Assembly: GCA_038065455.1 (NCBI GenBank)
Contig: JBBTQX010000002.1
Span: 6,779 to 70,778, forward strand
Reading direction: 5' to 3'
Length of the DNA stretch: 64,000 bases
DNA from: Patescibacteria group bacterium
Lineage (GTDB): Bacteria; Patescibacteriota; Minisyncoccia; UBA6257; GWB1-50-10
Shown: piece by piece, positions 9,010-64,000 of the stretch
How positions within the stretch are numbered: the first letter of the stretch is position 1
Layout: the number at the start of each line of letters is the position of its first letter
Notes under the pieces: model-generated
Seen by the model: the letters and a program-made list of their open reading frames with translations, nothing else
Databases searched by the model: none
Told to the model about the DNA's origin: nothing
Translations under genes and position numbers: made by a program

Positions 9010-9015
9010 ATGTTT

Positions 9016-9717: not shown

Positions 9718-9724
9718 AGTGGGA

Positions 9725-9759: not shown

Positions 9760-9765
9760 TTGATT

Positions 9766-9921: not shown

Positions 9922-10099
9922 TTATTTCCAAAAAATTATTTATTTAACAAATATCCTTATTGCAACCTACATTTATCTAAATAAATATCAAATGAATAAG
10001 GGGTTATTATCCCAGAAAATGAAATTTTCTGATTAATTTTTAATGCTGCTGCGGTTTTTGCCCAATCTGAATCAAAGAGACAATGTATTATTTAATGTT

Positions 10100-13541: not shown

Positions 13542-13548
13542 TTTATTA

Positions 13549-14151: not shown

Positions 14152-14214
14152 TAGATTAATTCTACTAAATTGGTAGGAGTTAGAATAGCAGAACCTTCCT
14201 TCTAAAACACGCTA

Positions 14215-14440
14215 TCAAATTCCCCGGCGTGGAATTTGCGCTCGCTCTCGGCCTCACTCTTCCGCTTCGCGGAAACCTTGCCCGTTCGGCCTGCGAGACG
14301 GTTTAAGGAGCAGGAAAATAGGACTGTTTGAATCCCGAAGCGAAGCGGAGGTTAAGTTCCGCATTTTCCGTCGGCGGATGATGAGGAATGAGCCTTGAAA
14401 TTATCCGAGCGGAGAGCTGTTGATGAGTGGAGAAGAAATT
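14215..14440. other. GC-rich non-coding segment with extensive self-complementarity (candidate RNA)
   Basis: No ORF of 60 aa or more in a 292-nt spacer. cttccgcttcgc pairs with gcgaagcggag; local hairpins tccgc/gcgga. Confidence 0.3.
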
Positions 14441-14443
14441 ACC

Positions 14444-15709
14444 CTACCCAATCTCCTTCTTTCCGACGTAATCCTGAAGCGCTTTCGGAACCCTCACCTT
14501 CCCCTCTTTCGTCTGATAATTTTCCAAAATAGAAATAATGGTCCGGCCGATGGCGAAGGCCGTGCCGTTCAAGGCATGCGTGAACTCCTTCTTCCCTTCG
14601 GCTGTTTTATATTTGACGTTTATGCCCCGCGTCTGGAAATCGGCGGTATTGGAACATGAATGCGTTTCGCGATACTCGTTCTGGCCCGGAAGCCAAGTTT
14701 CAATATCAAATTGGCGCGCACCTACCCAATCCATATCACCGGTGCAAATCTCCACCACCCTATATGGCAATTCCAGCTTCTGCATCAACTTCTCTTGGAG
14801 CGAAACCAAAAATTGATGCTCTTTTTCGGAATCTTCCGGTTTTGAGAAAGAGAACATTTCTACCTTATCAAACTGATGGACCCGTAATATCCCTTTTGTG
14901 TCTTTGCCATATGAACCGGCCTCGCGCCGAAAACAGGTCGAAAAACCGACATAGCGGCGCGGCAAATCTTTTCCTTCGAAAACTTCGTTCATTTGGAGCG
15001 GGCCCAAAGTATGTTCGGCGCTTCCCACTAAATATAAATCATCCTTGGGCAAATAATATTTATCTTCTTTTTGTTCGCCCACAAGTTTTCCCATGCCGGC
15101 AAATACGTCCGATTTTATCATCACGGGCGGCACCACGGGAATGAATCCCTCTTCCAATAATATTTTGAACGCGAGTTGAACCAGACCGAATTCCATGAGC
15201 GCCGCTTCATTCATCAAATATCCGAAACGACTGCCGGAAACCTCGGCGGCCTTTTTCACGTCGATAAGACCGAGCTTTTCTCCCAAAGAAAGATAATCTT
15301 TGGACTTGAATCCGTCCTCGGCGGAGAATTTTGGTTTCTCGCCCCATTCCCGGATCACTTTATTCCCGTTTTCGTCTTTCCCGATCAAAACGTCTTCGAA
15401 GGGGATATTCGGAATCTTATTCAAAATTTCATCGCGTTTGGTCTCGAGAGTTCCGCGCTCCGCTTCAATGTCGCCGATGCGCTGTTTCAAAAGCTGGGCG
15501 CGGCTTATCAAATCCTCTTTCCGTTCCTTCGCCAATTCCTTCGAGAGTTCGTTCTGCTCCGCCTTGAGCTCGTCCAATGCTTTTACCTTCGTTCGCCACT
15601 CCTCATCCACCCGCAGGAATTTATCCACCAATTTCGGATCGGCTTTTTTCTTCTCTATCCCCCTTTTTACTTTGTCGGGATTCTCCCGAATGAGATTTAT
15701 ATCGAGCAT
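14444..15709 (-). CDS. serS: seryl-tRNA synthetase
   Basis: 421 aa. N-terminal coiled coil plus class II core. Confidence 0.95.
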   Translation of the reverse strand: MLDINLIRENPDKVKRGIEKKKADPKLVDKFLRVDEEWRTKVKALDELKAEQNELSKELAKERKEDLISRAQLLKQRIGDIEAERGTLETKRDEILNKIPNIPFEDVLIGKDENGNKVIREWGEKPKFSAEDGFKSKDYLSLGEKLGLIDVKKAAEVSGSRFGYLMNEAALMEFGLVQLAFKILLEEGFIPVVPPVMIKSDVFAGMGKLVGEQKEDKYYLPKDDLYLVGSAEHTLGPLQMNEVFEGKDLPRRYVGFSTCFRREAGSYGKDTKGILRVHQFDKVEMFSFSKPEDSEKEHQFLVSLQEKLMQKLELPYRVVEICTGDMDWVGARQFDIETWLPGQNEYRETHSCSNTADFQTRGINVKYKTAEGKKEFTHALNGTAFAIGRTIISILENYQTKEGKVRVPKALQDYVGKKEIG

Positions 15710-15710
15710 T

Positions 15711-17159
15711 TTATTTTTTATCTTCGCGCATCAAGGGAAAAACGACTGTTTCCCGAATCGGCTTATCCATTAATACCGAAAAGACCCGCTCGGACATTCC
15801 GAAACCGGCCGCGGGCGGCATGCCATATTCCATCGCTTCCAAGAAATCTTCGTCCAAATACTGGGCTTCTTTATCACCCTTCGCCCGCAAGGCCATCTGG
15901 GCCTCAAAACGCTCCCGCTGGTCCAAGGGGTCGTTCAGCTCCGAAAATCCTTTGCCGAGTTCCGTACCATAAGCCATTATCTGCAGGCGCTCAACACGCC
16001 GTGAATCCTCGGCGGAACGCTTAGCCAAAGGCTCTATTTCCACCGGCGGATTTACGAGGAATCCGGGCTCCACAAGCTTCGGTCGAACAGTCTTTTTGTA
16101 GATAAGATCGATGAGCCGGCCCCTTTGTGCCGAAGGCTCGTATTTCAAACCCAGTTCATCCGCCTTCTTTTTGAGTCCGCTATCGGAAACCTTGTTCAAA
16201 TCCAATCCGGCGTATTTTTTGAAAAGCTCGTAATAATCGTAGGTCTTCCAGGGCTTGCCCCAGTCGGCTTCGTATCCCTGGCTCTTAATTTTGAGAGTTC
16301 CGAAAGTTTTTTTGATGACCGTTTGAAACATTTTCGGAAGGAATTTCATCAAATCCCGATAATTGGCATAAGCCCAATAAAACTCCATATGCGTGTAATC
16401 CTGAAGATGTTCGGCATCGATGCCTTCGTTCCGGAAGATACGCCCGATTTCGAAGACTTTTTCGTAGCCGCCCACGAGCAATTTTTTGAGCGGAAGTTCC
16501 AGGGAAATGCGCAGATAAAAATCCCGATCCAGGGCATTGTGATGGGTTTTGAATGGTTCGGCTTCCGCTCCGCCCGGCAATCCCTCCAGAACCGGCGTCT
16601 CCACTTCGAGAAAATTTTCCTGTTTCAAAAAATCCCGCACCGCGCCCCAGAAAACGCTCTTTTTTACGAACATTTCCTTCACTTCGGGATTCAGAATCGT
16701 ATCGAGATACCGCTTCCGCAGGCGGGTTTCCGTATCCTCGAGACCATACCAGCTCTGGGGCAACGGCCGCAAGCTTTTGGCGATAATCCGGGCCTGTTTC
16801 GCCAGGATGGATCTTTCTCCCCGCTTCGTTTTAAAAAGCGTTCCCTTCGCTTCCGCGAAATCTCCGATATCGAGCGTTTCCTTTAATATATCAAAATTAT
16901 CCGTCTCTCCCTTCTTGAGGATGAGCTGAATCTGCCCGCTCTCGTCTTTCAAATCGGCGAAGATTATCCCGCCCTGGCCCCTCACGGCTCCCACCCGTCC
17001 GGCGAGCCATAAAACTTTCTTCGATTTCGCCAACTTCGGAAAAGCGGAAACCGCCTCCTTTACGGACGCAGTCCTTTTTACTTCGGCGGGATATGGATCG
17101 GCGTATTTTTTGTAACGCTCGAGCTTTGCCTTCCGTTCCCGGATTAAATCTTCCAGCAT
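15711..17159 (-). CDS. lysS: lysyl-tRNA synthetase, class II
   Basis: 482 aa. OB anticodon-binding domain plus class II motifs. Confidence 0.93.
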   Translation of the reverse strand: MLEDLIRERKAKLERYKKYADPYPAEVKRTASVKEAVSAFPKLAKSKKVLWLAGRVGAVRGQGGIIFADLKDESGQIQLILKKGETDNFDILKETLDIGDFAEAKGTLFKTKRGERSILAKQARIIAKSLRPLPQSWYGLEDTETRLRKRYLDTILNPEVKEMFVKKSVFWGAVRDFLKQENFLEVETPVLEGLPGGAEAEPFKTHHNALDRDFYLRISLELPLKKLLVGGYEKVFEIGRIFRNEGIDAEHLQDYTHMEFYWAYANYRDLMKFLPKMFQTVIKKTFGTLKIKSQGYEADWGKPWKTYDYYELFKKYAGLDLNKVSDSGLKKKADELGLKYEPSAQRGRLIDLIYKKTVRPKLVEPGFLVNPPVEIEPLAKRSAEDSRRVERLQIMAYGTELGKGFSELNDPLDQRERFEAQMALRAKGDKEAQYLDEDFLEAMEYGMPPAAGFGMSERVFSVLMDKPIRETVVFPLMREDKK

Positions 17160-28842: not shown

Positions 28843-29130
28843 ATGTATCCCGTTAGAGACATTTCTATGTATTACAATTACGTTTTAAGAAGCAAAAAAG
28901 ATGGGAAATGGTATACTGGCTACACGAATGATCTACGGAAGCGCTTTAGCCAGCACAATAGCGATAAATTCCCTCAATGGACCAAAAATCGGGGTCCTTT
29001 TGAAATCATATACTATGAAGCCTGCAAAGATCTGCAAGATGCAAGGTCGAGGGAATATTATCTAAAAACAGGAATGGGTAAACGTTATATCAAAAATAGG
29101 CTAAAGCGCTTCCTGTCTCTAACGGGATGA
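28843..29130 (+). mobile_element. family-1 element, ORF-bearing copy A (GIY-YIG ORF bounded by 15-bp TIRs)
   Basis: ATCCCGTTAGAGACA (28847-28861) is the exact reverse complement of TGTCTCTAACGGGAT (29114-29128). The ORF spans TIR to TIR. Confidence 0.75.
28843..29130 (+). CDS. small GIY-YIG nuclease-domain protein (COG2827/UPF0213-like)
   Basis: YNYVLRS..GKWYTGYTNDLRKRFSQHN...E..YLK: GIY, YIG, Arg and Glu positions present. Alternative start at ATG 28867. Confidence 0.8.
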   Translation: MYPVRDISMYYNYVLRSKKDGKWYTGYTNDLRKRFSQHNSDKFPQWTKNRGPFEIIYYEACKDLQDARSREYYLKTGMGKRYIKNRLKRFLSLTG

Positions 29131-30371
29131 ACCTCAAAACCCGGCGAACTCTCTTTTACTTCTTCATTCTCATATTCGTCCTTGCGGGCGCTTATCTCCT
29201 CGCAACCGCCCAGGGGCTGGTCCTGGATTTCAAAAATCTGAAGATTACCGGCACTGGCGGGCTCTTTTTGAAGTACGTTCCGCCCGACGCGACTGTGGAA
29301 TTGAACGGCAAAAAAACCGATGTTTCGCCCGGCCTCGTTTCGAGCGGAATTTTCATCTCTAAATTAATTCCCGACGAATACCGGGTAAAGATTTCAAAAC
29401 CGGGCTTCTCTGCCTGGGAAAAGACACTCGCGGTTAAGAACGGCGCGGTGGCTTCGGCGAGCCAAATCAGGCTCTGGCCCGAAGTCTGGGATTTGAATGT
29501 CATTACGACGAGCTCCGTCCGGGATTTCCGGCTCACGGGTGCGGGTCTAGTACTCCAAGGAAAAAACGGAACTCTTCGGCTGGACGGATTTTCTTTGGGA
29601 AACAGGAGTGTCGCTTTGAGCGGGCCGGACTCGTCCCTCATCGTTACGACCGATGAAAAAGAAAATTTTGTAACCAATCTCGAAGATTTGTCACCCGCGC
29701 TCGATATCGTCCGGCTCTTTAATTCGCTGAAACAAAGCCAGTTGAATCTTCCCGGCACGATCATTCCTAAAAATTACTTCCTTCATCCCTTTAACGCCAA
29801 AATTCTCATCACGACCGGAAACGCGCTTTACTCGCTCGATATCAAAAGATTGAGACTTGAAAAACTGACCGATATGGCAGGAATTAAGAAGGCGGAATTA
29901 AGGGGAAACGAAATGTTTCTTTTCGATATGAAAGACAATATAACGACATTCAATCTTTTTCTCCAAACTGCCAGAATTTATGAATCGACCTCCACCGAAG
30001 CCATCGGAATAGGAGCGAGCCTGGCCGGCTTGCCGGCCCCCGACGGGAAAAAGATTTTTTTGCTTTCAAAAAACGACACGCTTTCTTTGAAAGTTTTGGA
30101 AAATTATTATGCCGACGGCGAAGTGAGAAAGGGCGATATGTGGCCCGTTTTTTCCGACCGGGGCAAAATAACGGATTTCAAATGGTTGAATGGCAATTCT
30201 AATTATGCGCTGGTACTTGCCGAAAAAAACTTGTTCATCGTTGAAACCGACCGGCGCACCCCGCAGAATATCCGACTCATATCCCAAGGAGTGGAAAAAT
30301 TCGCGACGGAGGGAAACGATCTCTATATCCTCAAAACCGACGGCACGCTTCTGAGGGCGAGTTTGAAGTAG
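29127..30371 (+). CDS. hypothetical membrane-anchored protein with a PEGA-like domain
   Basis: N-terminal TM. DATVELNGKKT...YRVKISKPGF resembles PEGA. The ATG overlaps the GIY-YIG TGA. Confidence 0.6.
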   Translation: MNLKTRRTLFYFFILIFVLAGAYLLATAQGLVLDFKNLKITGTGGLFLKYVPPDATVELNGKKTDVSPGLVSSGIFISKLIPDEYRVKISKPGFSAWEKTLAVKNGAVASASQIRLWPEVWDLNVITTSSVRDFRLTGAGLVLQGKNGTLRLDGFSLGNRSVALSGPDSSLIVTTDEKENFVTNLEDLSPALDIVRLFNSLKQSQLNLPGTIIPKNYFLHPFNAKILITTGNALYSLDIKRLRLEKLTDMAGIKKAELRGNEMFLFDMKDNITTFNLFLQTARIYESTSTEAIGIGASLAGLPAPDGKKIFLLSKNDTLSLKVLENYYADGEVRKGDMWPVFSDRGKITDFKWLNGNSNYALVLAEKNLFIVETDRRTPQNIRLISQGVEKFATEGNDLYILKTDGTLLRASLK

Positions 30372-30381
30372 AAGACGAATT

Positions 30382-30750
30382 TTAAAAAATATCAGAGACT
30401 CTAGTCAGTGCAAGCCGATTCATGACTTCATCGTCATAGTTATCCATATGGACACAGATGCAAAGTAAGACGATAACGGCGCCTTTTACTGCGAACCACA
30501 TTCGGGGATACTGATTGGGTCTTAAATTATCATTAGGAACAACGAGTTCTACTTTCCATAAGGTCCAGATATCATTCTGCGTTACCCTGTGTAATTTTGC
30601 CGGGGCTATTATTTGCTTCGGATTCTCCGGATTGAATTGAAATTCGCACAACCTCTTGAATGAATCTAAACCGTCTTTAAGATGACGAAATCGCCGCTCA
30701 AGGGCGGCGATTTCTTTTTCTATGCCGTCATGATACAGAAATTCAATCAT
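30382..30750 (-). CDS. RelE/ParE-superfamily-like toxin candidate
   Basis: 122 aa. LWKVELVV......YPRMWFAVKGAVIVLLCICVHMDNY matches the RelE-type beta core pattern. 4-nt overlap with the upstream antitoxin. Confidence 0.55.
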   Translation of the reverse strand: MIEFLYHDGIEKEIAALERRFRHLKDGLDSFKRLCEFQFNPENPKQIIAPAKLHRVTQNDIWTLWKVELVVPNDNLRPNQYPRMWFAVKGAVIVLLCICVHMDNYDDEVMNRLALTRVSDIF

Positions 30751-31238
30751 AGGTCGCTGAAATCCGTACCGCGATAGAACGCGAGTTCATATGAAATATC
30801 CTCTCCCGGCTTCGTCCCAACATATGGGGCCTCAGCATGGGAAAGTTCGCCAAGCTGTTTTCCATTCAATTGGCCGTATTTTATGGCAACGCGATCAAGC
30901 ATTCTTCTTTCTTCGATATCTAATATTAATTCATCCGGTTCCGCCAAAGAACTGTAAACCTCAATTGGATTATATCCATTTCCCAATTCGACGGCTTTGG
31001 CAAGAAGTATTTTTTTCTCGGACATTTCCGATATAATTTTCTCAAAAGAGACTGGTACTGGCCCCATAGGAAGGGCTTTATATGTATCCCCAGTTATAGG
31101 TTTCTGATTCTTTTCGAAGAAATCAAAATCAGCAAAATAAAGGAGTTTTGCTAGTTTTTTCTTCCCTTGGATTTCACCTCCTAATTTCTTACAGAGATAT
31201 AGTATAACTTGCTGATATTTCTTCTTTTGGAGGGTCAT
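30747..31238 (-). CDS. DUF4065 (Panacea/SocA-like) antitoxin-domain protein
   Basis: 163 aa. KKLAKLLYFADFDFF....PITGDTYKALPMGPVP is characteristic of DUF4065. Confidence 0.7.
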   Translation of the reverse strand: MTLQKKKYQQVILYLCKKLGGEIQGKKKLAKLLYFADFDFFEKNQKPITGDTYKALPMGPVPVSFEKIISEMSEKKILLAKAVELGNGYNPIEVYSSLAEPDELILDIEERRMLDRVAIKYGQLNGKQLGELSHAEAPYVGTKPGEDISYELAFYRGTDFSDL

Positions 31239-31354: not shown

Positions 31355-31380
31355 GAAAAAAAATCCCCGAAGGGATTTTT
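31355..31380 (-). terminator. rho-independent terminator after rpsI
   Basis: Minus strand: A-run, stem atccc/gggat with loop ttcg, then T8. Confidence 0.75.
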
Positions 31381-31833
31381 TTAACGCTTGCGCCACTGTT
31401 GCGGCCGTCTCGCTTTCCGCAGGCCGTATTTCTTGCGCTCCACCTTCCGGGGGTCGCGTTTCATAAAGCCGAGGGATTTCAATTTGGAACGCCAGGTGGG
31501 ATTCAAAGCGACGAGGGCGCGAGACAAGCCGAGCCGGATGGCTTCTGCCTGGGAACTCAAGCCACCTCCTCCAACCAATGCCGTCGCGTGGTATTCCTTG
31601 AGCGAAAGCTCGCCGAAGGGAGCGAGGACGGTCTTCTGCAATTTCGCGGTCGGAAAATATTCGGAAAAGGGCAAATCATTCACGATAATCTCCGGAGTCT
31701 TGCTCGCCGCTTTGCGGCCGGAAAAAAGCCGGACGCGGGCGACCGCGGTCTTCCGGCGGCCGATAGCCTCGATATATTTATCCTTTTCCTTTTCAATTTT
31801 CTTCGCCGGATGGGCGGTTGTTTTCGAAGGCAT
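31381..31833 (-). CDS. rpsI: 30S ribosomal protein S9
   Basis: GRRKTAVARV...GGG.SGQA.A...G..RAL...KKYGL.KARR..Q.SKR-type C-terminus. Start trimmed to ATG 31833. Confidence 0.92.
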   Translation of the reverse strand: MPSKTTAHPAKKIEKEKDKYIEAIGRRKTAVARVRLFSGRKAASKTPEIIVNDLPFSEYFPTAKLQKTVLAPFGELSLKEYHATALVGGGGLSSQAEAIRLGLSRALVALNPTWRSKLKSLGFMKRDPRKVERKKYGLRKARRPQQWRKR

Positions 31834-36511: not shown

Positions 36512-39364
36512 TTAATTTTCTCCTTCAACTGTTTTTATTTCTTCCTCCGTTAAGCCGTAGAGCTTATATACCTCCTCATCAATTTTCTTGTCGGTTCTTC
36601 CTATTTCGGATTTCAGTCGTTCCCATTCGTTGGAATTTTCCTCGACGTCGTGAAATTCTTTATTAAGAAGGATTATCTTATCAACATAAGAAATTATTAA
36701 TTTCTGCGATGCCTCGTCTGCAATATAAATTGGTAGATCTAATAGTGGCTCCTTATCTATTTGTAGTTGATCACCCTGTAATTTCCCCTTATTTCTTAAC
36801 CAGAAATGCATGATGTTTGAATTGAGTAATCCAAGAACATATTTGAGATTCACTTTATCCAATTTTAAAATTATAAAAGCTCTTGTAACATAACAAGGAA
36901 AATCAACATATGAAAAGGATGGTTTTATGGTTTTCCTTATTGAAAAAATACAGTGGCCCTCAAAAAATCTTTCTTCGCGTGCCCTATGAAGACCATAGGG
37001 AGCATACACAGAAGTTAAAATTTTAGAAAATTTATCTAGGTGTTTTTTGAGATTAGGAAACTGTTCAATATGTTCCCGGAAATAACTGTCCGCATAAATT
37101 ATACGGAGGCTTGTGTTTTTAATAGATAAGTATCTATTTATTTCTTTTGTTGTATAGTACGGTCTTAAATATTGATCTTCAGGTTTTGTTGGTGAAAGTT
37201 CTTTAATTTCGTCCTCAGATAAAATAAATATGCCATCGCCTTTCTTTATTGTTTTATCTGACAAACCCTGTAGGTGCTTTTCAGTGATAAAATCTTGCAA
37301 AACATCAATGCCATTACCGACATCTTTTTCGTTAATGTGGTAATTCTGTTTTGATTTTATCTTTTCTAGGAGAATGTCTTTATTGCTCTCGGTAAAAATT
37401 AAAAAGTGGCCCAGTAATTTTTCTGGTTTAATCTCAATTTCGGTTTTTTCACCAAAAATTCTGGAAATAAGTTCGTTTTCCGCTATATTCCTATCGGGAA
37501 TCCTTAAATAACTTACCTTGTATTTTTCATCTGGTTTTCCTTTTTTAAAGGTAAAAATCATTGTTTGAATCCCAGCTTGTTCAAAAACCTTATAGTCACC
37601 AAAATCTAGGAAGGATTTTAGTTCGCCATCTTTTAAAATTTTATCTCTAAAAATATCTGCGCCGGCATTGCTTACCCAATTATTCGGAGCGATAAAACTC
37701 AAAATTCCCCCGTCTTTAAGTAAATCTATTGAAATGCACGCAAACATTGTCCAAATATCCATTTTACCCTGATAATATGGGCTATCGTGCAGACCATTAA
37801 AAGCTTCTTTATTCACAAACTCCTTGATATACGGCGGGTTTCCGATAATCACATCAAACCCGCCTTGTTTGAAAACCTCCGGAAATTCCTCTTCCCAGTT
37901 AAACGGCTTCTTATTGCGAAAATTTGCACCAAAATGCTTTTTAAGTTCCGAGTCGGTGCCCGAAATGAGCGAGTTTCCATTCTTTATATTTTTATCGAGC
38001 GATGGCAGCTTCTGCCTTTCATTTAAAGCGCCTACAAGAAGATTTAATCTGGCGATTTCAACCGCTTGCTCGTCCAGATCAACCCCATAGATATTCTCTA
38101 AAAGTATTTGGATTTTTGTGAAAACATTCCCTGGTGCGCCCATTTTCTTGTATTTTTCATTGATAAGTTCCAACGCCTGAACAAGAAACGAACCGGAACC
38201 ACAGGCCGGGTCCAGTACCTTTATCTTCTTCAAATCCTCTATAGTGTTGCACTTTTCCAAAACCGGCCCCAAGGCGTTTTTCACGATATACTCAACGATA
38301 AAATGGGGCGTGTAATAAATCCCCTGCTCCTTGCGCTTCTTAGCATCCTTATGAACTTCTACGCCCTTCTTTGATTGAGAAAGTTTATAGCCGAGATAGT
38401 TTTCATAAACTGTTCCTAGAACATCAGCGGGCATCGCCTTGAAATCATATTCATAATAGCCCGGTTTGCCGTAGAGAATCTGAATAACTTTCTCCGTGGC
38501 GTCGCCATATTCCTCCCATTCTTCAAACGGGTGTTCGGAAAAAAGATTGGAATTGTAGGTTTTATCCAATTCCCTGAATTTATCCACCATGTGCTTGTAA
38601 AGCGGCACCTCGTTTTGGTCTTTGCGATTTTTCCATTCACGAAGCAATGGGATAAGCGTTGGCGGTTCAATTCCTCTATCCTCGGCAACACGTAAAAAGA
38701 TAAGTCTGTCCAAAAGCTTTTGAACGCCTTCATCTAAAAATTGGGGGGCAATTTTAGAATTCCAAGCCTTCAACGATTTAGTAAGAATCTCCCGACATTC
38801 GTTCAGGTCGTTGAATAACAGCGAAGTTACCGGAATTTTCTGGAATTTCTTTCCGAATTTTTCTGCCTCTGTATCGATAAGATTTTTCTCGAATGATTCT
38901 CTTGATAAGAGCGAAAGTTGGTCAAAACATTCAATATATCTATCGTAGGAAATTTCAAAGAGAAGTTTGGCGGCCAATGTCGCTTTCGCATCCTGCGTGT
39001 TGAAAACTTTTATACTCTCAAAGTCGGTAAGCACTGCCCAAGTTACGCCCTTATTCCAAGAATATCTTATTGCTTGTTTGGCATATTCTTCGCGATGCAA
39101 ATCCACCTTAAGTGATTTGGCCTCTAAATAGAATTTCGCCCGGCCATTTAAATAAAATCCGTAATCAACTCTATCCGAGGATGATAAATTTTCTTCCGCT
39201 GAAACCTCATTTTTGTTATGGACATCCCACCCAAGCGCTTCAAAAATCGGCAGAATAAAATCTTTTTTTGTTTCCTCTTCCGTATAACTCTTTATCTTGC
39301 CGGCCGATTTAGCAATTTCATACTTATCAATAAGCAACCTTATCTTCTCTTTCGGGTCATTCAT
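36512..39364 (-). CDS. type IIG (fused endonuclease-N6-adenine methyltransferase-specificity) restriction-modification enzyme, Eco57I/MmeI-like
   Basis: N-terminal PD-(D/E)xK-like D...EAK (VDYGFYL...FYLEAKS), SAM motif VLDPACGSGSFLV, catalytic NPPY (IIGNPPYIKE), C-terminal TRD-like region. 950 aa. Confidence 0.85.
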   Translation of the reverse strand: MNDPKEKIRLLIDKYEIAKSAGKIKSYTEEETKKDFILPIFEALGWDVHNKNEVSAEENLSSSDRVDYGFYLNGRAKFYLEAKSLKVDLHREEYAKQAIRYSWNKGVTWAVLTDFESIKVFNTQDAKATLAAKLLFEISYDRYIECFDQLSLLSRESFEKNLIDTEAEKFGKKFQKIPVTSLLFNDLNECREILTKSLKAWNSKIAPQFLDEGVQKLLDRLIFLRVAEDRGIEPPTLIPLLREWKNRKDQNEVPLYKHMVDKFRELDKTYNSNLFSEHPFEEWEEYGDATEKVIQILYGKPGYYEYDFKAMPADVLGTVYENYLGYKLSQSKKGVEVHKDAKKRKEQGIYYTPHFIVEYIVKNALGPVLEKCNTIEDLKKIKVLDPACGSGSFLVQALELINEKYKKMGAPGNVFTKIQILLENIYGVDLDEQAVEIARLNLLVGALNERQKLPSLDKNIKNGNSLISGTDSELKKHFGANFRNKKPFNWEEEFPEVFKQGGFDVIIGNPPYIKEFVNKEAFNGLHDSPYYQGKMDIWTMFACISIDLLKDGGILSFIAPNNWVSNAGADIFRDKILKDGELKSFLDFGDYKVFEQAGIQTMIFTFKKGKPDEKYKVSYLRIPDRNIAENELISRIFGEKTEIEIKPEKLLGHFLIFTESNKDILLEKIKSKQNYHINEKDVGNGIDVLQDFITEKHLQGLSDKTIKKGDGIFILSEDEIKELSPTKPEDQYLRPYYTTKEINRYLSIKNTSLRIIYADSYFREHIEQFPNLKKHLDKFSKILTSVYAPYGLHRAREERFFEGHCIFSIRKTIKPSFSYVDFPCYVTRAFIILKLDKVNLKYVLGLLNSNIMHFWLRNKGKLQGDQLQIDKEPLLDLPIYIADEASQKLIISYVDKIILLNKEFHDVEENSNEWERLKSEIGRTDKKIDEEVYKLYGLTEEEIKTVEGEN

Positions 39365-44027: not shown

Positions 44028-44450
44028 TTACCTCAAACTCATCAAGACGGCGCCGGCCGTGAGAAGCGCCGCGCCAAGGCCGGATTTCCAAGTCAGGTTT
44101 TCCCCTAAAAAGAGAATAGCGAGAACGAGCACAAAAACCACGCTTAGCCTATCCAAAGCCGCGACACCAGAGGCCGGGCCGTTCTTCAGGGCGAAGAAGT
44201 AGAAGAGCCACGAAAGCGCCCCGGCAACGCCGGAAAGAGCGATAAAAACCAGGGCTTTGTTATCTATGGATCTAAACGATTCCCAACTTCCGAGGCCAAA
44301 AGAAACGGCCAAAAGGAAAACTGCCATTATAACGGCGCGGACGGTCGTAGCAAGCGTCGAGTCGATGTTCGATATCCCGATTTTGCCGAAGACGGCGACG
44401 AGCGCCGCCGAAACAGCCGATAACAAAGCGAAAAATATCCAACTAGGCAT
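44028..44450 (-). CDS. EamA-domain (DMT superfamily) small membrane protein
   Basis: 140 aa, 4-5 TM segments, EamA-like pattern. Confidence 0.6.
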   Translation of the reverse strand: MPSWIFFALLSAVSAALVAVFGKIGISNIDSTLATTVRAVIMAVFLLAVSFGLGSWESFRSIDNKALVFIALSGVAGALSWLFYFFALKNGPASGVAALDRLSVVFVLVLAILFLGENLTWKSGLGAALLTAGAVLMSLR

Positions 44451-44868
44451 TGATTTTATTATACCTCAAAGAAAATGTGAGGCCGAGAGCGAAAAGAATA
44501 ATTGAATCGAAAGCCGAGAAGAGGCAATAAAAACAAAGCGAATGGATTATGAAAAGCTGGACATATAAGAACCAAAGCGAGGCAATAAATCCGAAAATCG
44601 TCAAAAGCCCGGCCAAGAAGAACAATTTTTCGTCTCTCTTTATAAACGAAATAAGAGAAAGAATGAATATGCCGAGATAATAAACCACGCCGAGGAGCGA
44701 CACCGGCACCGAGCCTAGTGTGGCATAGGAGCTTTGGAGCACCAAATCGCAGGTATTTATAAGCAGACAAACTACCGACACATCCTGATAATGCGTTATC
44801 GTAAGATATGTAGCATCAATCAATCCAAGAAAGCTCAATACCAAAAAAATTATCGCTATTTTTTTCAT
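44443..44868 (-). CDS. vitamin K epoxide reductase (VKOR)-family membrane protein
   Basis: Loop Cys pair (VVCLLINTC) and TM CxxC (CFYC). 141 aa. Confidence 0.65.
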   Translation of the reverse strand: MKKIAIIFLVLSFLGLIDATYLTITHYQDVSVVCLLINTCDLVLQSSYATLGSVPVSLLGVVYYLGIFILSLISFIKRDEKLFFLAGLLTIFGFIASLWFLYVQLFIIHSLCFYCLFSAFDSIILFALGLTFSLRYNKINA

Positions 44869-44884
44869 TTTAAATTAGTCTATG

Positions 44885-44908
44885 GGTGGTATAATTGACT
44901 ATACCACC
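44885..44908. repeat. GGTGGT-arm hairpin at the DoxX stop
   Basis: ggtggtata / tataccacc, 9-bp stem with 6-nt loop, T-run on the plus side. The arms resemble the 30-nt palindromes. Confidence 0.55.
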
Positions 44909-45357
44909 TGGTTTTTTACTCTGGATACTTTGCCATCCAAGCCGAAATAATTTCCGGCGTCCATTATGAAGAATAAAATAAGTAGCGCGGCGTAGATAAC
45001 ATGGTCGTCCACGATAAATCCGTTCGCCACGACCGGAAAAGCGTTGCCGGCAAAATAATACAAAACCATTAAAAGCGCCCCGGGGATGGCGCTCCACCGC
45101 ACGAAGAGCCCCAATATAAGGGAAATGCCCAAAAGCAAAAGTGCCCATTCGTTTATGAAATTCACAACCCCGATGACACTCGGCCCGGCAAACCAGGCAT
45201 ATAATCCGGAAAATGTCTTGGCATTAGCCAGGAATCCCGCCGCGCTCCAACTCGCGTCCAATATCTTCACGAGTCCGGCATAAAAGAAAATCCAGCCCAG
45301 CGCTATTCTCCCGACAGCCAGCCAAACCTTCGTATTTTTATTTAAAATATTTTCCAT
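44899..45357 (-). CDS. DoxX-family membrane protein
   Basis: RIALGWIFFYAGLVKI pattern. Start trimmed to ATG 45357. Confidence 0.65.
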   Translation of the reverse strand: MENILNKNTKVWLAVGRIALGWIFFYAGLVKILDASWSAAGFLANAKTFSGLYAWFAGPSVIGVVNFINEWALLLLGISLILGLFVRWSAIPGALLMVLYYFAGNAFPVVANGFIVDDHVIYAALLILFFIMDAGNYFGLDGKVSRVKNQVV

Positions 45358-45363
45358 ACTTCG

Positions 45364-45372
45364 ATTATACCA
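45364..45372 (-). promoter_or_regulatory. extended -10 element for a leaderless DoxX transcript
   Basis: Minus strand: TGgTATAAT, 6 nt, ATG(45357). Overlaps the stop of the upstream gene. Confidence 0.45.
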
Positions 45373-47134
45373 CCTCGGCGTTATAGCAGCTTTCACAATA
45401 TACGATTTCCTTGCGGTCGGGGGAATATGAGGTTTCGAATTCATTCGGGCACTTCCCTTCTCTATGCTGGTGCTTCACGGTGTTTTGATAAATTCCGTTC
45501 TCCGATTTTTGACTGGAGCATTGGCATTGGCGATGCCAAAGCGAAAATGGATTGCGTAATCCAAAACGCGCCCCGGCTCGACAATGAAAACAATTATGCG
45601 GTATTGGAATACGCATTTTTCTGTAGAACATTAATTCCGACGGCACAATCCGATAATTTCTTGCGCATAATGAACAACGCAGAGTTTCATTTAAGATAGT
45701 ATCCGACACATCGGAAATGCTCTCCGGCAACTTATCCAGGGAAATAGTTTCTTTGCCGGTAGTAACTTGAAAATGTTCTTGCCAACAGATTTTTTCTTCT
45801 TCCGCCTGTTTTTGAGTTATCGGAAAAAAATCCTGCGCTACCGTTTCATTGTAGGCAAAGTACGATAGTTCAGTCGGAAAGAATTCTCCATGTTTGTATG
45901 TTCTTCCTTTCGAATCGATGTATGGTATTTCATCCATTTGTTTCTTTATTTTTGAAATCAATTCTTCATATTCTTCTTTGGAATATTGCTTATTCAAAAC
46001 GCAATATTGGGCTTTCTTCAGGCCGCAACAGCCAAAAATGTCTTTTGACGAGTGGCATCCATCGACATAGGAAACTTCCGTATTTTTCCAGGAAAATATC
46101 GAGAAGCGGCTTCTATACGAGTGGTCGGGAGTAATTCCTTCATAGCATTGATCAAGCTCGCCTCCTACACTTAGGTCATAGCTCGCTTTAGGGGTATCGG
46201 AATTTTCAACCCATCGGCAATCTTCCGGACGCTGAACATTGAAACAGTCTCTGGAATTCTTGCCGTTTATGAGGGCATCACCCGTGCAATTAACACAATT
46301 TCTTAAACTTGAGAATTTCCTGGGGTAGAGAGGAAAAATAGATAAAAGCTCTTTCATTGCTCTTTCTGCGCCTGCGTGGGTATCAAGCCGATATTCGGCG
46401 AGAATGCGATTGTATTCCTCTTTTGTATATTCTTTATTCTTGAAACAATAACGCTTATGCCTGATGCCGACAGATAGGAAACAATCGGAACAATCCCTGC
46501 AATCCCAGCAAAAATTGCAATCGGAAAGCGCGACGGAATAATAAACATTCCGACATCGATAACATTTCTCCGTATAAACAGTTTCATAAATCGCTTCGCA
46601 TTCTCCCATTGAATTAAGGCTATCCACAATTTCTTTTCCATCGAGGAGATAAACGCTATAAAGACATTCTTCAAGTTTCCAGGCAATAAAAACCATATAG
46701 CAGTTCTTGCTACGCGCGAAATCCTGGGTATATTCGCAATTCAAGCTTCCGATTCCGTTGTCATTCACCATCGCGAGCGCTGGCACGCGTCTTTGCAGTT
46801 CCGCGAATTGTTCGAAGAATGATTTGGAAAAATCATATTCTTGCGCATAAGACTTCGGATCCCATCCGTCGGACCACCAGCATTTCTGACAATACACGCT
46901 TTTCATTGGTCCATCCGGAGAATAGAGGGAAATTATGTTTTTATTGCATAAGTCGCATTTTCTGGAGTAAAGCGATAAATCATTCCGCCAGGAAAGCCGG
47001 CGCTGTTTTCGGCATTCCGGGCACCAAGTCGGCGGCGGAACCTTCATTTTCTCATAAAACAAGAAATCGTCCGGTTCGATTGTGAACGGGTTTTTGCAGT
47101 TCTGACAGTTTTTGGTTTCTATTTTATTACTCAT
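45365..47134 (-). CDS. cysteine-rich hypothetical protein with zinc-ribbon modules at both termini
   Basis: 589 aa. A 42-residue CxxC...FYxKMx[VI]PxPxxCxxCR...RN module occurs at residues ~10-51 and again near the C-terminus. Many further CxxC pairs. Confidence 0.7.
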   Translation of the reverse strand: MSNKIETKNCQNCKNPFTIEPDDFLFYEKMKVPPPTWCPECRKQRRLSWRNDLSLYSRKCDLCNKNIISLYSPDGPMKSVYCQKCWWSDGWDPKSYAQEYDFSKSFFEQFAELQRRVPALAMVNDNGIGSLNCEYTQDFARSKNCYMVFIAWKLEECLYSVYLLDGKEIVDSLNSMGECEAIYETVYTEKCYRCRNVYYSVALSDCNFCWDCRDCSDCFLSVGIRHKRYCFKNKEYTKEEYNRILAEYRLDTHAGAERAMKELLSIFPLYPRKFSSLRNCVNCTGDALINGKNSRDCFNVQRPEDCRWVENSDTPKASYDLSVGGELDQCYEGITPDHSYRSRFSIFSWKNTEVSYVDGCHSSKDIFGCCGLKKAQYCVLNKQYSKEEYEELISKIKKQMDEIPYIDSKGRTYKHGEFFPTELSYFAYNETVAQDFFPITQKQAEEEKICWQEHFQVTTGKETISLDKLPESISDVSDTILNETLRCSLCARNYRIVPSELMFYRKMRIPIPHNCFHCRAGARFGLRNPFSLWHRQCQCSSQKSENGIYQNTVKHQHREGKCPNEFETSYSPDRKEIVYCESCYNAEVV

Positions 47135-47142: not shown

Positions 47143-47172
47143 CTAGGTGGTGTCTTTAAAGACACCACCTAG
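47143..47172. repeat. 30-nt perfect palindrome, copy 1
   Basis: ctaggtggtgtctttaaagacaccacctag. Lies 9 nt upstream of the ATG at 47134 and overlaps its AGGA Shine-Dalgarno. Confidence 0.8.
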
Positions 47173-47190
47173 TTTTTGTCTTATTTTATA

Positions 47191-48390
47191 TCAACCGTAT
47201 AGTCTTTCTAGCTCCTTGTATTTGGAATTGCGGCTCTCGACGGGCGCGCCGATCTTCACGCCATAGGCGCCGCCGGCCTTGGCGAAGTGGATTATGAAAG
47301 CGTCCTCCACTTCCCCCGAACGGTGGGAAACGATGGTTTTCACGCCGTTCAAGCGGGCAATCTTCATGGCTTCGCAGGTTTCGGTCACAGTGCCGATTTG
47401 ATTCGGCTTCACTATCAATCCGCTGATTAGCCCTTCGCGGACTGCCTTCTCAATCGCGATGGGATTGGTTGTCGTGAGGTCATCCCCCACCACAAGCGCT
47501 CCCGCGGAACGGGAAGTTAATTTCTTGAAGCCTTCTTCGTCGGTTTCGGCGAACGGGTCTTCGATAGACATAAGAAGCGGGAAGGATTTCAGATAGAATT
47601 CGTAAACCTCCGCCATCTCATTGGTCGAAAGATTCCGTCCGTCGAATCGGTAGCGGCCGTTCTCAAAAAATCCGCTCGCGGCGGCATCAATAGCCAGAGA
47701 AAAATCGGGCGCCAACTTCCCCTCTTCTATCGCTTTTCCGAGAACTCTCAAAGGCCCGGCATTATCGGGAAAATCCAGAGAATATCCCCCTTCGTCCCCC
47801 AGCACCAATTTTCTTAGGCCGAATTCTTCTTTGATTTTCCCTCCCAATTTTTCATAGAAATCTTTCAATTCCGCGATGCTCCTCCCGAAGGAATCGTGGG
47901 TTTTCGCCACAACCATATATTCCTGGATATCCAGATTGTTCTTCGCGTGCGTCCCGCCATTTATGAGATTAGAAAATATTAGCGGATTTTCCCCAAAAAT
48001 CTCTCCGCCGAAGAATTCCTCGTTCAAAACTTCCCACAATTCCTTGTTCTTCGACTTGGCAACCAGACGCGCGAAAGAAACCGAGATGCCTAATATCAGG
48101 TTCCCGCCCAATATTTCTTTCCGCGGCGTGCCGTCCAAAGTGATGAGGAACGCATCCAGTTCGCCGATAGATTCGAAGTTCCGCCTTAAAATCTCCGGCT
48201 TTATCTTTTTTCCTGCGACTCGTATCGCCTCCGCGGGCTCCAGAACATCCGCCTCGTTCTTTCCCCGGCTCTTACCGGAGGGAATCTGCGCCGAAGCGGT
48301 ATCGCCATATTCTCCCGTCAAAAACACCTCGATGGTCGGCTTCCCCCTGAAATCCGTTATTTCCTTTACTTCAATGTCTTTTATCCTCAT
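47191..48390 (-). CDS. eno: enolase (divergent, 399 aa)
   Basis: FRGKPTIEV...IPSGKSRGKNEA N-terminal pattern. SHRSGE near the C-terminus. Confidence 0.8.
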   Translation of the reverse strand: MRIKDIEVKEITDFRGKPTIEVFLTGEYGDTASAQIPSGKSRGKNEADVLEPAEAIRVAGKKIKPEILRRNFESIGELDAFLITLDGTPRKEILGGNLILGISVSFARLVAKSKNKELWEVLNEEFFGGEIFGENPLIFSNLINGGTHAKNNLDIQEYMVVAKTHDSFGRSIAELKDFYEKLGGKIKEEFGLRKLVLGDEGGYSLDFPDNAGPLRVLGKAIEEGKLAPDFSLAIDAAASGFFENGRYRFDGRNLSTNEMAEVYEFYLKSFPLLMSIEDPFAETDEEGFKKLTSRSAGALVVGDDLTTTNPIAIEKAVREGLISGLIVKPNQIGTVTETCEAMKIARLNGVKTIVSHRSGEVEDAFIIHFAKAGGAYGVKIGAPVESRNSKYKELERLYG

Positions 48391-49422: not shown

Positions 49423-49452
49423 ACAAAAAAACCGCGGTATATAATACCGCGG
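49423..49452 (-). terminator. rho-independent terminator
   Basis: Minus strand: stem ccgcggtat/ataccgcgg (9 bp, 3-nt loop) followed by T8. Confidence 0.8.
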
Positions 49453-49754: not shown

Positions 49755-49784
49755 ATAAAAAATAACACCGGAACGAGTCCGGTG
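49755..49784 (-). terminator. rho-independent terminator after the PspC-domain gene
   Basis: Minus strand: stem acaccgga/tccggtgt (8 bp), then a T-rich run. Confidence 0.7.
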
Positions 49785-49813
49785 TCAAACCCAGGCGTGT
49801 TTTAGAGACGAAA

Positions 49814-61923: not shown

Positions 61924-62811
61924 TTATTTTATCACAAAAAACCTTAATATGTCATCCGTGGCCTCGAATTTCACCAAGCCGTCCCGATCGGTGCGAAATA
62001 TCTTCGCGCCGACATCCGCTAACCGATTCAAAGCTTCTTTTGTCGGATGGCCGTAGGAATTCTTCCCTACTTCTATAACCGCGACTTTCGGCCTGATCGA
62101 ATCCAAGAAATTCGCCGAAGACGAGAATTTCGAGCCGTGATGCCCGACTTTCAAAATATCCACCTTGTCCGCCATATCCGCCATTATTTTATTTTCCGTT
62201 TCCTCACCCATATCGCCGGTGAAAAGTGCGCGAGTGTTTTTGCTTTCTAGCTCGAGTACCAGTGCGGTCTCATTCAAACTGTCTCCGGAAGCAATGGTGT
62301 TCTTCGGAGGCCAAAGCACTTTCATTCTACTTGCACCGTACCGGATGACATCCCCCGCCGCAAGCGTTATAAGCGGGATATTCTTGTCTTTTATCGTTTT
62401 TATAAGCTCTTTCGCCGCCGAAGTGTCTTTCGGCACGCCGTTCCAAACAAACGCGCCGATGCGATAGCGTTTCAATACTTCCATTAGACCGCCGAAATGG
62501 TCCAATTCGGCATGACTCAAAGCGACGATGTCTATATAATGATCGCGCGAAGGCAATATCTTGTCCAAATTCTCGAGCACCAACGAGTCCGGCGGCCCGC
62601 CGTCAATGAGAATCTTCGCCCCGCCCGGAAATTTGACGAGTTCGCTGTCCCCTTGGCCCACCGACAGGAAATAAAGAGATAATCTGTCTTTTTCCGAAGC
62701 GTCGGCTCCGATTTGCCGGAAAACAAGAATATCCAGAATAAAAAACAAAGTCAGCCAGAAAACGACTTTCCCGAAATTATTCCCGATGAATTTACGAATG
62801 AATTCCTTCAT
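61924..62811 (-). CDS. comEC: ComEC C-terminal metallo-beta-lactamase domain, separate ORF
   Basis: SVGQGDS and HAELDHFGG (HxHxDH-like) motifs. Own N-terminal TM. Confidence 0.8.
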   Translation of the reverse strand: MKEFIRKFIGNNFGKVVFWLTLFFILDILVFRQIGADASEKDRLSLYFLSVGQGDSELVKFPGGAKILIDGGPPDSLVLENLDKILPSRDHYIDIVALSHAELDHFGGLMEVLKRYRIGAFVWNGVPKDTSAAKELIKTIKDKNIPLITLAAGDVIRYGASRMKVLWPPKNTIASGDSLNETALVLELESKNTRALFTGDMGEETENKIMADMADKVDILKVGHHGSKFSSSANFLDSIRPKVAVIEVGKNSYGHPTKEALNRLADVGAKIFRTDRDGLVKFEATDDILRFFVIK

Positions 62812-62829: not shown

Positions 62830-64000
62830 TTATCCCCAGGGTGGTGTCTTTAAAGACACCACCCTGTTTTTCGACGTTTTCAAAATGAAAGTTGCGATTG
62901 CCAGATAATAAGCAACAATAAAAATCCAACCCAAAGACACGCTTAGAGATAGATTGAAGTTGCCGAAGAATTCTATCAGTCCCGTCTCGACTTTCAATAG
63001 CGGCCAAACGAACCAGCCGGCGATGAGCGCGAGATAATGCGAGATGCCGGAGAGAACGGCGACGGCGAAGCCGAGCATCATCGTATACGGAATAAGCTCC
63101 AGAACCAGAACATTCGAGATGAGCGAAATAGGCGAAAAATTCCCGAAGTTCTGGATTAATATCGGAAGAACCATAAGCTGAGCGGAGCCGGTCATCAGGA
63201 GATTCTCCCGCCAGGAAAAAGTTTCTTTTTTCCCGCCGACCGGCAAATTGAAAAGCTCTTCGAGCGCCGGCTTCAAATATACGATGCCGATGAGCGCGAG
63301 GAATGAAAGTTCAAAACCGGCATCGAATACCAACACCTTGGGATTTATAAGCACCATCAAGAGTCCCGCTAAAGTTATGGCATTCCGCGGATTGAAGATG
63401 CGGCCGCTCTCGGTCGCAACGACGACGAGCGCGCCCATAATCGCCGCTCGCACGACCGATGCCTCCGCTCCGGTCATAAGCACGAAGGCGACAAGGAAAA
63501 TGAAGGCGACAATAAAAGCAGTCCTTCTTTTCAAGAATGAAGTGAGTAAAGCCATTGCCGCCACGATGACGATCGAGACGTTGTAGCCCGAAAGCGCGAC
63601 CAGGTGCGTCGTGCCGCTTATCTGCATCGCCACTTTGAACTCGGGAGAAAAATCGCTCCGCTCACCCAAGGTCAGGCCGGAAAGAAAAGCCGCTTCCTCG
63701 ACCGGCAATATCTCTCCGAAATTATCCACAGTGGAATTCTTGAGATTGAATAAAAAAGATTTGAAGGGCGCGCCCTTATCTTCCGCGATTAGCTTAACTT
63801 CGGGATATGAAACAATTCCGCTTATTCCCTCCTTCGCCAGATATTGGGCATAGCCTGCCTGCGCAGGCAGGCCTCCCAATTCCGGTTTTTTGACCGCGCC
63901 ATTTACCGAAATCAAGTCGCCATAATGGAATTCGGGATAGCGCGGAGCATTTACGAGAATTTTCACCTTGGCGCCGGAAAATTCCGTTTGGACGTAAAGA
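62830..64000 (-). CDS. comEC: ComEC/Rec2 competence-channel part (OB-like + multi-TM competence domain), 5'-partial
   Basis: Competence-domain TM pattern. The reading frame stays open upstream of GTG 63966 to the window edge. Confidence 0.8.
   Translation of the reverse strand, partial: LYVQTEFSGAKVKILVNAPRYPEFHYGDLISVNGAVKKPELGGLPAQAGYAQYLAKEGISGIVSYPEVKLIAEDKGAPFKSFLFNLKNSTVDNFGEILPVEEAAFLSGLTLGERSDFSPEFKVAMQISGTTHLVALSGYNVSIVIVAAMALLTSFLKRRTAFIVAFIFLVAFVLMTGAEASVVRAAIMGALVVVATESGRIFNPRNAITLAGLLMVLINPKVLVFDAGFELSFLALIGIVYLKPALEELFNLPVGGKKETFSWRENLLMTGSAQLMVLPILIQNFGNFSPISLISNVLVLELIPYTMMLGFAVAVLSGISHYLALIAGWFVWPLLKVETGLIEFFGNFNLSLSVSLGWIFIVAYYLAIATFILKTSKNRVVSLKTPPWG
62837..62866. repeat. 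30-nt perfect palindrome, copy 2
   Basis: cagggtggtgtctttaaagacaccaccctg. The central 24 nt are identical to copy 1. Lies in the last codons of the upstream comEC ORF. Confidence 0.8.

Follow-up and report, generated by a model that had tools for sequence, protein, structure and literature searches.

Perfect palindromes with a shared core at gene junctions of a Patescibacteria genome: possible small, dispersed insertions

Results

Three related hairpins between co-directional genes

The stretch of DNA analyzed here (hereafter, the window) comprises 64,000 nucleotides of contig JBBTQX010000002.1 (assembly GCA_038065455.1) from a Patescibacteria group bacterium and contains three short palindromic hairpins, each at a junction between two genes (Table 1). 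Copy 1, CTAGGTGGTGTCTTTAAAGACACCACCTAG, lies between the genes for enolase and for a Cys-rich protein, and copy 2, CAGGGTGGTGTCTTTAAAGACACCACCCTG, lies at the boundary between comEC and a separate open reading frame (ORF) for a metallo-beta-lactamase (MBL) protein. Both are perfect palindromes of 30 nt, and, at a distance of 15.7 kb from each other, they share an identical 24-nt core, GGTGGTGTCTTTAAAGACACCACC; the coordinates and the identity reported for this pair in an initial annotation of the window were verified. The outer two base pairs differ between the two copies but are compensated (TA/TA versus AG/CT). In each 30-mer, a stem of 13 bp encloses a 4-nt loop, and the folding energy is near -23 kcal/mol for both strands (z about -6.5); for copy 1, the RNA folds at -23.6 kcal/mol on the minus strand and at -23.0 kcal/mol on the plus strand. 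An assembly artefact was rejected for copy 2, which is unchanged in 8 independent assemblies (Hainich groundwater and Logan).

The related hairpin that the same annotation had placed at the stop codon of the DoxX gene was found as well and is of the GGTGGT...ACCACC type. This copy 3, GGTGGTATAattgacTATACCACC, spans the DoxX stop codon, which is located 30 nt upstream of the start of the next gene, encoding a VKOR-family protein, and shares its outer arms with copies 1 and 2. All three hairpins are real and non-random: at a tolerance of up to 3 mismatches, the 24-nt core is matched twice in the window and never in 100 dinucleotide-preserving shuffles, and the pattern GGTGGT-N4-24-ACCACC is found 3 times, against 0.03 expected, the third match being copy 3. 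On the mRNA strand, the consensus of the family consists of an A-tract, AAC-NN, GGTRGTRT..., a loop and ...AYACYACC. In the 64 kb, there are 3 occurrences of the half-site GGTGGTRT and 5 of AYACCACC, which is approximately the chance level. Beyond the 3 copies in the window, none was detected in the 8.5 kb that the overlapping sister contig L073 adds past the window end.

Operon context and terminator shape

Every window gene past about 35.8 kb is on the minus strand, and all three hairpins sit in intercistronic gaps between co-directional minus-strand genes, two of them overlapping the last codons of the upstream ORF. Copy 1 reads ...CACCACCTAGGAAATAAAATG on this coding strand, and its last two bases fall in the AGGA located 8 nt before the ATG of the Cys-rich gene, an overlap that had been pointed out in the initial annotation and is accurate. 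Copy 2 encodes the residues R-V-V-S-L-K-T-P-P-W of the ComEC tail, which are followed by G and then by the TAA stop codon (62830-62832); the MBL ORF begins 18 nt past this TAA, in the same frame, with the one TAA and six sense codons in between.

All three copies have ACCACC-NN-GTTTTT in common on the plus strand, and on the mRNA strand, each presents an A-tract, the hairpin and then a purine-rich ribosome-binding-site sequence, with no U-tract. By structural criteria (5 or more base pairs in the stem, G-C pairs among them, a 3-8-nt loop and 5 or more T in the 8 nt past the stem), with either strand considered, all three have the form of intrinsic terminators. On the plus strand, 47143-47172 and 44883-44910 pass a consensus terminator scan, in which copy 1 is the top-listed terminator-like site of the 40-60 kb interval, and 62837-62866 passes a separate scan; copies 1 and 2 are the two most stable hairpins reported by the terminator scan of the window (-22 and -24 kcal/mol). 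Terminators of the ordinary kind, on the sense strand, are present at operon ends (49432-49452, 49765-49785 and 9850-9867). That the hairpins serve as intrinsic terminators of a flanking gene was ruled out because the T-run is on the plus strand only and the flanking genes are all on the minus strand.

Table 1. Hairpin copies, adjoining T-tracts and flanking genes in the window
Feature	Position	Strand	Remarks
Copy 1	47143..47172	none	stem of 13 bp, loop UUAA; gap of 56 nt from enolase stop to Cys-rich start
Copy 2	62837..62866	none	final codons of the ComEC channel; MBL ORF starts 25 nt downstream
Copy 3	44885..44908	none	GGTGGTATA-attgac-TATACCACC, 9-bp stem; DoxX stop at 44899-44901; followed on the plus strand by TGGTTTTTT
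T-tract TTTTTGTCTT	47173..47182	+	abuts the copy 1 stem on the plus strand only; on the mRNA strand, A-tract ACAAAAAC upstream
T-tract TTTTT	62867..62871	+	follows copy 2; complement of the comEC-tail Lys/Asn codons AAA AAC
Cys-rich gene	45365..47134	-	589 aa; downstream of copy 1; large Patescibacteria paralog family, no Pfam match
Enolase gene	47191..48390	-	upstream of copy 1
DoxX gene	44899..45357	-	Q-V-V-stop end comes from the copy 3 left arm
VKOR-family gene	44443..44868	-	downstream of copy 3
ComEC channel gene, 3' part	62830..64000	-	DUF4131 and Competence; runs past the window end; 494 aa in sister contig L073
MBL ORF	61924..62811	-	295 aa, separate; nuclease half of the ComEC of this lineage

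The comEC gene is not interrupted

The hairpin between comEC and the MBL ORF gives the impression of a split gene, and the initial annotation had described copy 2 as lying inside comEC. The tail it named, VVSLKTPPWG, is indeed encoded there, directly before an in-frame stop; the junction itself, however, is a natural boundary of two genes. The best 120 ComEC homologs listed are about 400-520 aa long (mostly 470-500), contain DUF4131 and/or Competence and lack an MBL domain, and 7 lineages, among them every relative for which downstream sequence exists, have a separate MBL ORF of about 295 aa after comEC, whether or not a hairpin is present. An interrupted or pseudogenized comEC is thereby ruled out, and the seemingly split gene is the normal two-gene ComEC of this lineage. 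The ComEC tails past the final membrane helix are short and not conserved; that of the window is about 10 aa longer than in the relatives because the ORF reads through the hairpin. Judging from these homologs, then, copy 2 is located at a natural gene boundary and alters only a short, non-conserved C-terminal tail. By gene coordinates, comEC and the MBL ORF are in frame in 2 of the 7 lineages, which is the chance level, so that a fusion by readthrough or frameshift is not a conserved feature.

Patchy presence of the hairpins among relatives

Exact protein matches assign the window to Patescibacteria of the Hainich groundwater, and the relatives compared are labeled Minisyncoccia, Paceibacterota or Jorgensenbacteria in the sources. 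At the comEC-MBL junction, where the window species carries the GTC-type core, two of them, L081 (ComEC 83% identical at the amino acid level) and L084 (70%), have GGTGGTATACTTAAGTATACCACC in the same place as copy 2; a variant hairpin, GGTGGTATAC-TTAA-GTATACCACC, is found in some relatives. The remaining four (L082, L089, L090 and L091) have no hairpin at this junction, and their ORFs abut or overlap. The initial annotation had suggested checking whether orthologous comEC genes lack the 30 nt, with presence at the same position in relatives taken as a sign of conserved coding sequence; a related hairpin in two of the six relatives and nothing in the other four is not the distribution of conserved coding sequence. 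L081 and L084 share 27 identical nt around the hairpin, compared with 72.5% identity of their ComEC proteins and about 70% of the flanking DNA. In the matrix of ComEC identities, the closest relative of every hairpin-bearing lineage is hairpin-less.

For the other two junctions, at the 3' end of the enolase gene and between DoxX and VKOR, the comparison was built on enolase homologs; with the Cys-rich protein, which belongs to a large multi-paralog family, as the synteny anchor, no conserved synteny was found. In the outgroups L099 (enolase 74% identical), L102 and L103 (67%), neither junction has a hairpin, and the ORFs overlap. The sister strain L095 (enolase 96% identical at the amino acid level) has a 30-nt perfect palindrome, CTAGGTAGTATACTCGAGTATACTACCTAG, at the same DoxX-VKOR junction; it aligns with copy 3, to which it is homologous, and shares its outer frame and flanks with copy 1. 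At the enolase 3' site of L095, there is an unrelated perfect palindrome, TAGTCTAATTAATTAGACTA, that was not found in the window. The overlapping ORFs of the outgroups, set beside the strains that bear hairpins, suggest that the hairpins and the spacers around them are derived additions to gene pairs that were once coupled.

Symmetry of arms, loops and flanks

In an alignment of 8 family members, the inner 10 pairs are paired in all 80 cells; 4 of these 10 pairs vary two-sidedly and 0 one-sidedly. The covariation score for the full set of 13 pairs is 0.308, compared with 0.130 for shuffles and at most 0.10 for slid controls, a supportive rather than decisive difference, given that the 8 sequences are few and related. 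The symmetry is not confined to the stem. By our own count, the loops are mostly self-complementary (TTAA, TCGA, AATT and TATA), and the palindromy reaches into the local flanks, where CAG (in comEC AAC AGG) is mirrored by CTG and CTAG by CTAG. In contrast to this mirror symmetry, one asymmetric feature, the A-tract on one side only, is kept across the family members. In copy 3, there is a G-U pair in the sense RNA where the other strand has an A-C mismatch, and the outer end gains G-U pairs on the plus strand as well.

Symmetry that continues through the loop is a property of DNA that an RNA hairpin does not need, and it fits template switching at quasipalindromes, a process that, according to two reports (PMC7202029, PMC3820800), widens the identity between arms. 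Likewise, the coexistence of half-site variants in one genome, together with the mirrored changes of the arms, points to a hairpin or a palindrome-generating process rather than to a single family of operators.

Searches beyond the window

Scans of genome and metagenome contig collections, neither of which includes the source genome, with the family pattern recovered mostly ordinary terminators of unrelated taxa; the only related matches were GGTGGTATAC hairpins in three Patescibacteria contigs. Hairpins of the GGTGGTATAC type occur in the sense-terminator position in the Saccharibacteria contig L044 and in the T4-like phage contig L092. In the viral collection, the matches comprised a single T4-like phage terminator whose arms are GGTGGTATAC and two stretches of coding sequence, with no sign of a phage origin, a source that was set aside on this basis. 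In Rfam searches, only one tRNA of the window reached the gathering score, and a permissive search around copy 1 gave sub-threshold hits only. Pfam scans of 40 window ORFs returned housekeeping genes, a small GIY-YIG protein, a SocA/Panacea antitoxin and an NYN-domain protein only.

A second family of palindromes

A second family of perfect palindromes, GCCTGCCTGCGCAGGCAGGC, is represented in the window at 63853-63872 and in L082 at 1467-1505, 1991-2029 and 4806-4823. Its 18-nt palindromic unit, CTGCCTGCGCAGGCAGGC, which encodes LPAQAG, is inserted in frame in the genes for aspartyl-tRNA synthetase (AspRS) and ComEC. The comEC gene contains the unit once in the window and in L089 and twice in L082; L081, L084, L090 and L091 lack it. 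It is also present in the AspRS of L082 and missing from the otherwise about 95% identical AspRS of the window, and it occurs twice, in another frame, in the L082 gene upstream of comEC.

Discussion

Palindromic inserts between co-transcribed genes

The initial annotation had offered, as possible roles for the palindromes, a binding site for a dimeric protein, an element resembling repetitive extragenic palindromic sequences (REPs) and a miniature insertion. The latter two have held up, given the hairpin-less relatives at all three junctions and the same core at two unrelated ones; the protein-binding site has not. It appears that the modules behave as palindromic inserts similar to REPs or to miniature inverted-repeat transposable elements (MITEs) and are copied between sites, an interpretation to which we give about as much credence as doubt. 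That copies 1, 2 and 3 constitute one small dispersed family of hairpin modules is shown, as are their locations and orientation, their presence or absence in the relatives and the two-sided changes of the arms; the same balanced confidence attaches to the proposal that each would be a derived insertion at a place where, judging from the relatives, two co-transcribed genes used to abut or overlap. For one and the same core to be present at two loci, it must have been copied from site to site. The patchy presence and the rapid replacement from strain to strain are what small REP- or MITE-like inserts are expected to show, and the occurrence of a second palindrome family in the same clade also counts in favor of such inserts. 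Phyla of the candidate phyla radiation (CPR) have the highest density of perfect inverted repeats among all phyla (PMC13155455), which is consistent with elements of this kind being common there.

We infer the following course of events. A palindromic module would be copied from site to site in this genome of the Minisyncoccia/Paceibacteria-like Patescibacteria and would land between co-transcribed genes that earlier abutted or overlapped. Inside operons, only the orientation that spares sense transcription would survive: a terminator-shaped insert is presumably tolerated only with its T-run facing away from transcription, and hence, the orientation bias needs no function. The two arms would then be altered jointly, probably by template switching at quasipalindromes, such that the palindrome stays perfect. 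Antisense transcription could thereby be blocked, the translational coupling of the flanking genes broken and a nuclease-resistant hairpin placed in the polycistronic mRNA.

Several observations weigh against this interpretation. Three copies in 64 kb do not by themselves amount to the high copy number typical of REPs and MITEs, which for REPs means tens to hundreds per genome, and in the relatives, palindromes of the family number 0-1 per 13-21 kb. Comparison of filled and empty sites revealed no target-site duplication. No transposase, Y1/HUH enzyme or integrase was detected by the Pfam scan of the 40 window ORFs or among the Pfam domains annotated for the called genes of L073 and L095, the contigs that overlap the window, and neither a GTAG nor a CGTC tag is present on the copies, whose flanks read AACTAG, AACAGG and AACCAG on one side and are unconserved on the other. 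At the comEC-MBL junction, L082 retains the 5' flank and L089 the 3' flank of an L081-like arrangement, so that some losses, by what look like two different deletions, are likely; the count at this junction, 3 gains versus 4 losses, does not decide between gain and loss. The Lys/Asn A-tract beside copy 2 is present in the hairpin-less L082, too, and the terminator-like appearance may, therefore, stem in part from the site rather than from the insert. The small and related set of sequences behind the covariation score belongs with these reservations.

Alternative explanations

The shape of the hairpins raises the possibility that they are antisense terminators selected by the host, that is, insulators that stop antisense transcription colliding with the operon or with replication and let sense transcription pass. 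All three are canonical terminators on the plus strand only, copies 1 and 2 lead the terminator scan in stability, and in the sister strain L095, an A-rich tract likewise precedes the palindromes of the same sites on the sense strand. However, relatives whose proteins are 67-86% identical manage without the hairpins at all three junctions, no convincing plus-strand promoters lie upstream (31 promoter-like sites, against 21.9 expected), and the removal of sense-oriented insertions explains the orientation equally well, which leaves this option rather unlikely. We hold in similarly low esteem the idea that the A-rich tract and the hairpin act in the sense strand, as a module for mRNA processing or stability ahead of the next ribosome-binding site, whether as a 5' stabilizer of the downstream cistron, a 3' barrier for the upstream one or a translational uncoupler or occluder. 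Indeed, in E. coli, REPs and intercistronic hairpins are known to stabilize the mRNA segments that precede them, the stem has a very high stability in sense RNA (the -23.6 kcal/mol of copy 1), the hairpins of all three window copies end 8-25 nt ahead of the following start codon, and copy 1 pairs two bases of the AGGA. The strand evidence is equivocal, though: the G-U pair that copy 3 gains in sense RNA, opposite an A-C mismatch on the other strand, has its counterpart in the G-U pairs gained on the plus strand at the outer end. Moreover, RNA function would not need palindromy through the loop and into the flanks, and it is at odds with the patchiness among relatives and with the replacement by an unrelated palindrome at the same site of the sister strain.

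The remaining alternatives carry far less weight. An operator bound by a dimeric protein that recognizes GGTGGTGTC-N6-GACACCACC and co-regulates the Cys-rich and MBL genes would account for a perfectly two-fold symmetric site of 24-30 bp just ahead of two start codons, and operators of this kind apparently exist in the clade, as exemplified by the palindrome beside a CsoR-family gene described below. Such a role is nevertheless improbable because the sites lie within operons and over coding 3' ends rather than at promoters, the half-sites are not enriched, half-site variants (GTC, ATA and the GGTAGT of the sister strain) coexist or replace each other with arm changes that are always mirrored, and the one-sided A-tract flank is conserved across members. 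Recoding, in which the A-run and the hairpin would drive a -1 frameshift at A_AAA_AAC in DoxX or readthrough of the TAA would fuse ComEC to MBL, is suggested by the zero-frame A_AAA_AAC only 2 nt ahead of the hairpin in DoxX and by the in-frame placement, in the window, of comEC and MBL, one TAA and six sense codons apart. Yet copy 1 is non-coding, the -1 frame of DoxX adds only 13 residues, that of comEC is not the MBL frame, the in-frame arrangement is at chance level (2 of 7 lineages), and the hairpin-less relatives manage with overlapping ORFs; we regard recoding as very improbable and reject a ComEC-MBL fusion in particular, since the frame relation is not conserved. Finally, the copy adjoining comEC brings to mind a DNA uptake sequence recognized by the competence machinery, with inverted pairs in terminators as in Neisseria; uptake sequences, as Kingsford is said to have reported in 2007, are often found in terminators. 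They occur, however, about once per kb, and the chance-level half-site counts (3 and 5 in 64 kb), which show no over-representation, led us to reject this explanation, the least credible of all, as do the relatives without the motif.

Relationship to known elements

The closest parallel to the proposed inserts is with the REPs and bacterial interspersed mosaic elements (BIMEs) of Proteobacteria, which are mobilized by REP-associated tyrosine transposases (RAYTs). Most REPs follow coding regions, in the space between ORFs that are unidirectional or convergent, and some are found within genes; they are probably transcribed within operon mRNA and are defined by an unpaired GTAG or CGTC tetranucleotide at one end (PMC3733652). 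Common to both are hairpin repeats of 20-40 nt (here 24-30 nt, with 9-13-bp stems), an extragenic position after coding regions between co-directional genes or, at times, in gene ends, and a variable presence among relatives. The differences are substantial, too: the palindromes described here are perfect whereas REPs are imperfect, their flanks are CTAG, CAGG and CCAG rather than the GTAG/CGTC tag, there are only 3 copies in 64 kb with no RAYT in the window, and the one-sided T-run of each copy makes a canonical terminator on one strand. Unlike MITEs, the element is a single hairpin, with no target-site duplication and no parent insertion sequence (IS) found.

With intrinsic terminators, the copies share a G+C-containing stem of 9-13 bp, a loop of 4-6 nt and a T-run at the base of the stem, but in the window they point against the genes, inside operons, with no U-tract on the mRNA strand, and an identical 24-nt core at two loci is unexpected for terminators that evolved independently. 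The palindromic elements of Rickettsia and intragenic REPs resemble the present inserts in being tolerated at or in coding sequence with only a local change of the protein. The Rickettsia elements are, however, about 100-150 nt long, compared with inserts of 18-30 nt here, and the GGTGGT family touches only the last codons of genes. Template-switch mutagenesis, known from E. coli and yeast, would account for the mirrored arm changes and for the outward extension of arm identity (PMC7202029, PMC3820800); it is a mutational process rather than an element, though, and leaves the same core at two loci unexplained.

A more far-reaching and distinctly less probable proposal, ranking below even the two RNA-level alternatives, is that the ultra-small Patescibacteria may harbor minimal (18-45 nt), self-propagating perfect palindromes of a class not described before, which would be copied without a dedicated transposon. 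One family would be the terminator-shaped GGTRGTRT...AYACYACC with its T-run, and the other, the frame-preserving 18-mer CTGCCTGCGCAGGCAGGC; copying between junctions and coding sequences would proceed via template switching or taken-up DNA fragments, with the consequence that operon coupling and antisense transcription would be reshaped. Under this proposal, the GGTGGT family would have been seeded from the GAG-GTG-GTR-TAA end of the Cys-rich family.

The finding is a modest one and is largely accounted for by known kinds of element. Where genomes leave next to no room between genes, the operon junctions of close strains gain, exchange and lose tiny perfect palindromes, and these turn overlapping, coupled gene pairs into separated ones with a strong one-way terminator. 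If this holds genome-wide and with an orientation filter, it would be a natural example of selection on the polarity of selfish hairpins and might provide a handle on transcription boundaries in the uncultured Patescibacteria, which are not genetically tractable.

The Cys-rich genes and other features of the locus

The ends of the Cys-rich genes bear a resemblance to the hairpin arms. Cys-rich paralogs end in CY(Q/N)xEVV-stop, often GAG GTG GTA TAA or GAG GTG GTG TAA. In the window, the end of this gene, GAGGTGGTATAA (45365-45376, minus strand), matches the left arm of the ATA-type hairpins exactly; in L085, the sequence GAGGTGGTGTAA at a Cys-rich EVV-stop end is the left arm of the GTC-type hairpins; and in the Saccharibacteria contig L044, the GGTGGTATAC hairpin is located directly past the stop codon of a Cys-rich homolog. 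From these identities, the hairpin family may have been seeded from Cys-rich gene ends by inverted duplication.

The Cys-rich 589-aa protein has 7965 homologs at E<=1e-30 in Patescibacteria, in tandem arrays of overlapping paralogs. Between the enolase and DoxX genes, there are 3 copies in L102, where Cys-rich arrays span 4718-10004 and 11193-16530, a single one in the window and none in L099; in L095, positions 11260-11300 hold a 12-codon Cys-rich remnant in which the 5' and 3' gene ends are fused. A 140-aa EamA-family gene (44028-44450), between the genes for VKOR and alanyl-tRNA synthetase (AlaRS), is absent from L095 and L099, which makes the enolase-AlaRS stretch a hotspot for the gain and loss of genes among close strains.

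A palindrome with 13-bp arms, CCAATAATACCCC-CTA-GGGGTATTATTGG, is found in L082 (8975-9003) and L099 (977-1005) directly upstream of a gene for a CsoR-family (Trns_repr_metal) repressor, of which it is probably the operator. The CsoR-family gene adjoins one for a heavy-metal P-type ATPase in these two contigs; in the window species (L073 and L095), the repressor gene is missing from this place.

Elsewhere in the window, the gap of about 1 kb between dnaJ and dnaK (5383-6399) holds no convincing ORF and no Rfam match at the gathering threshold; it contains a perfect hairpin, TCCGGATAAACCTTATCCGGA, at 6123-6143. A region of mixed strands (28843-31238) encodes a 95-aa GIY-YIG protein (plus strand) and a SocA/Panacea antitoxin-domain protein (minus strand), and AAAAAAATCCCCGAAGGGATTTTTTT, at 31357-31382, is a perfect bidirectional terminator-like palindrome. 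An ORF of 950 aa (36512-39364), followed by the gene for an NYN-domain protein, is absent from L099; its 935-aa counterpart in L095 combines N6_Mtase, MmeI_Mtase, Eco57I and TaqI_C, the composition of a fused type IIG, MmeI-like restriction-modification enzyme.

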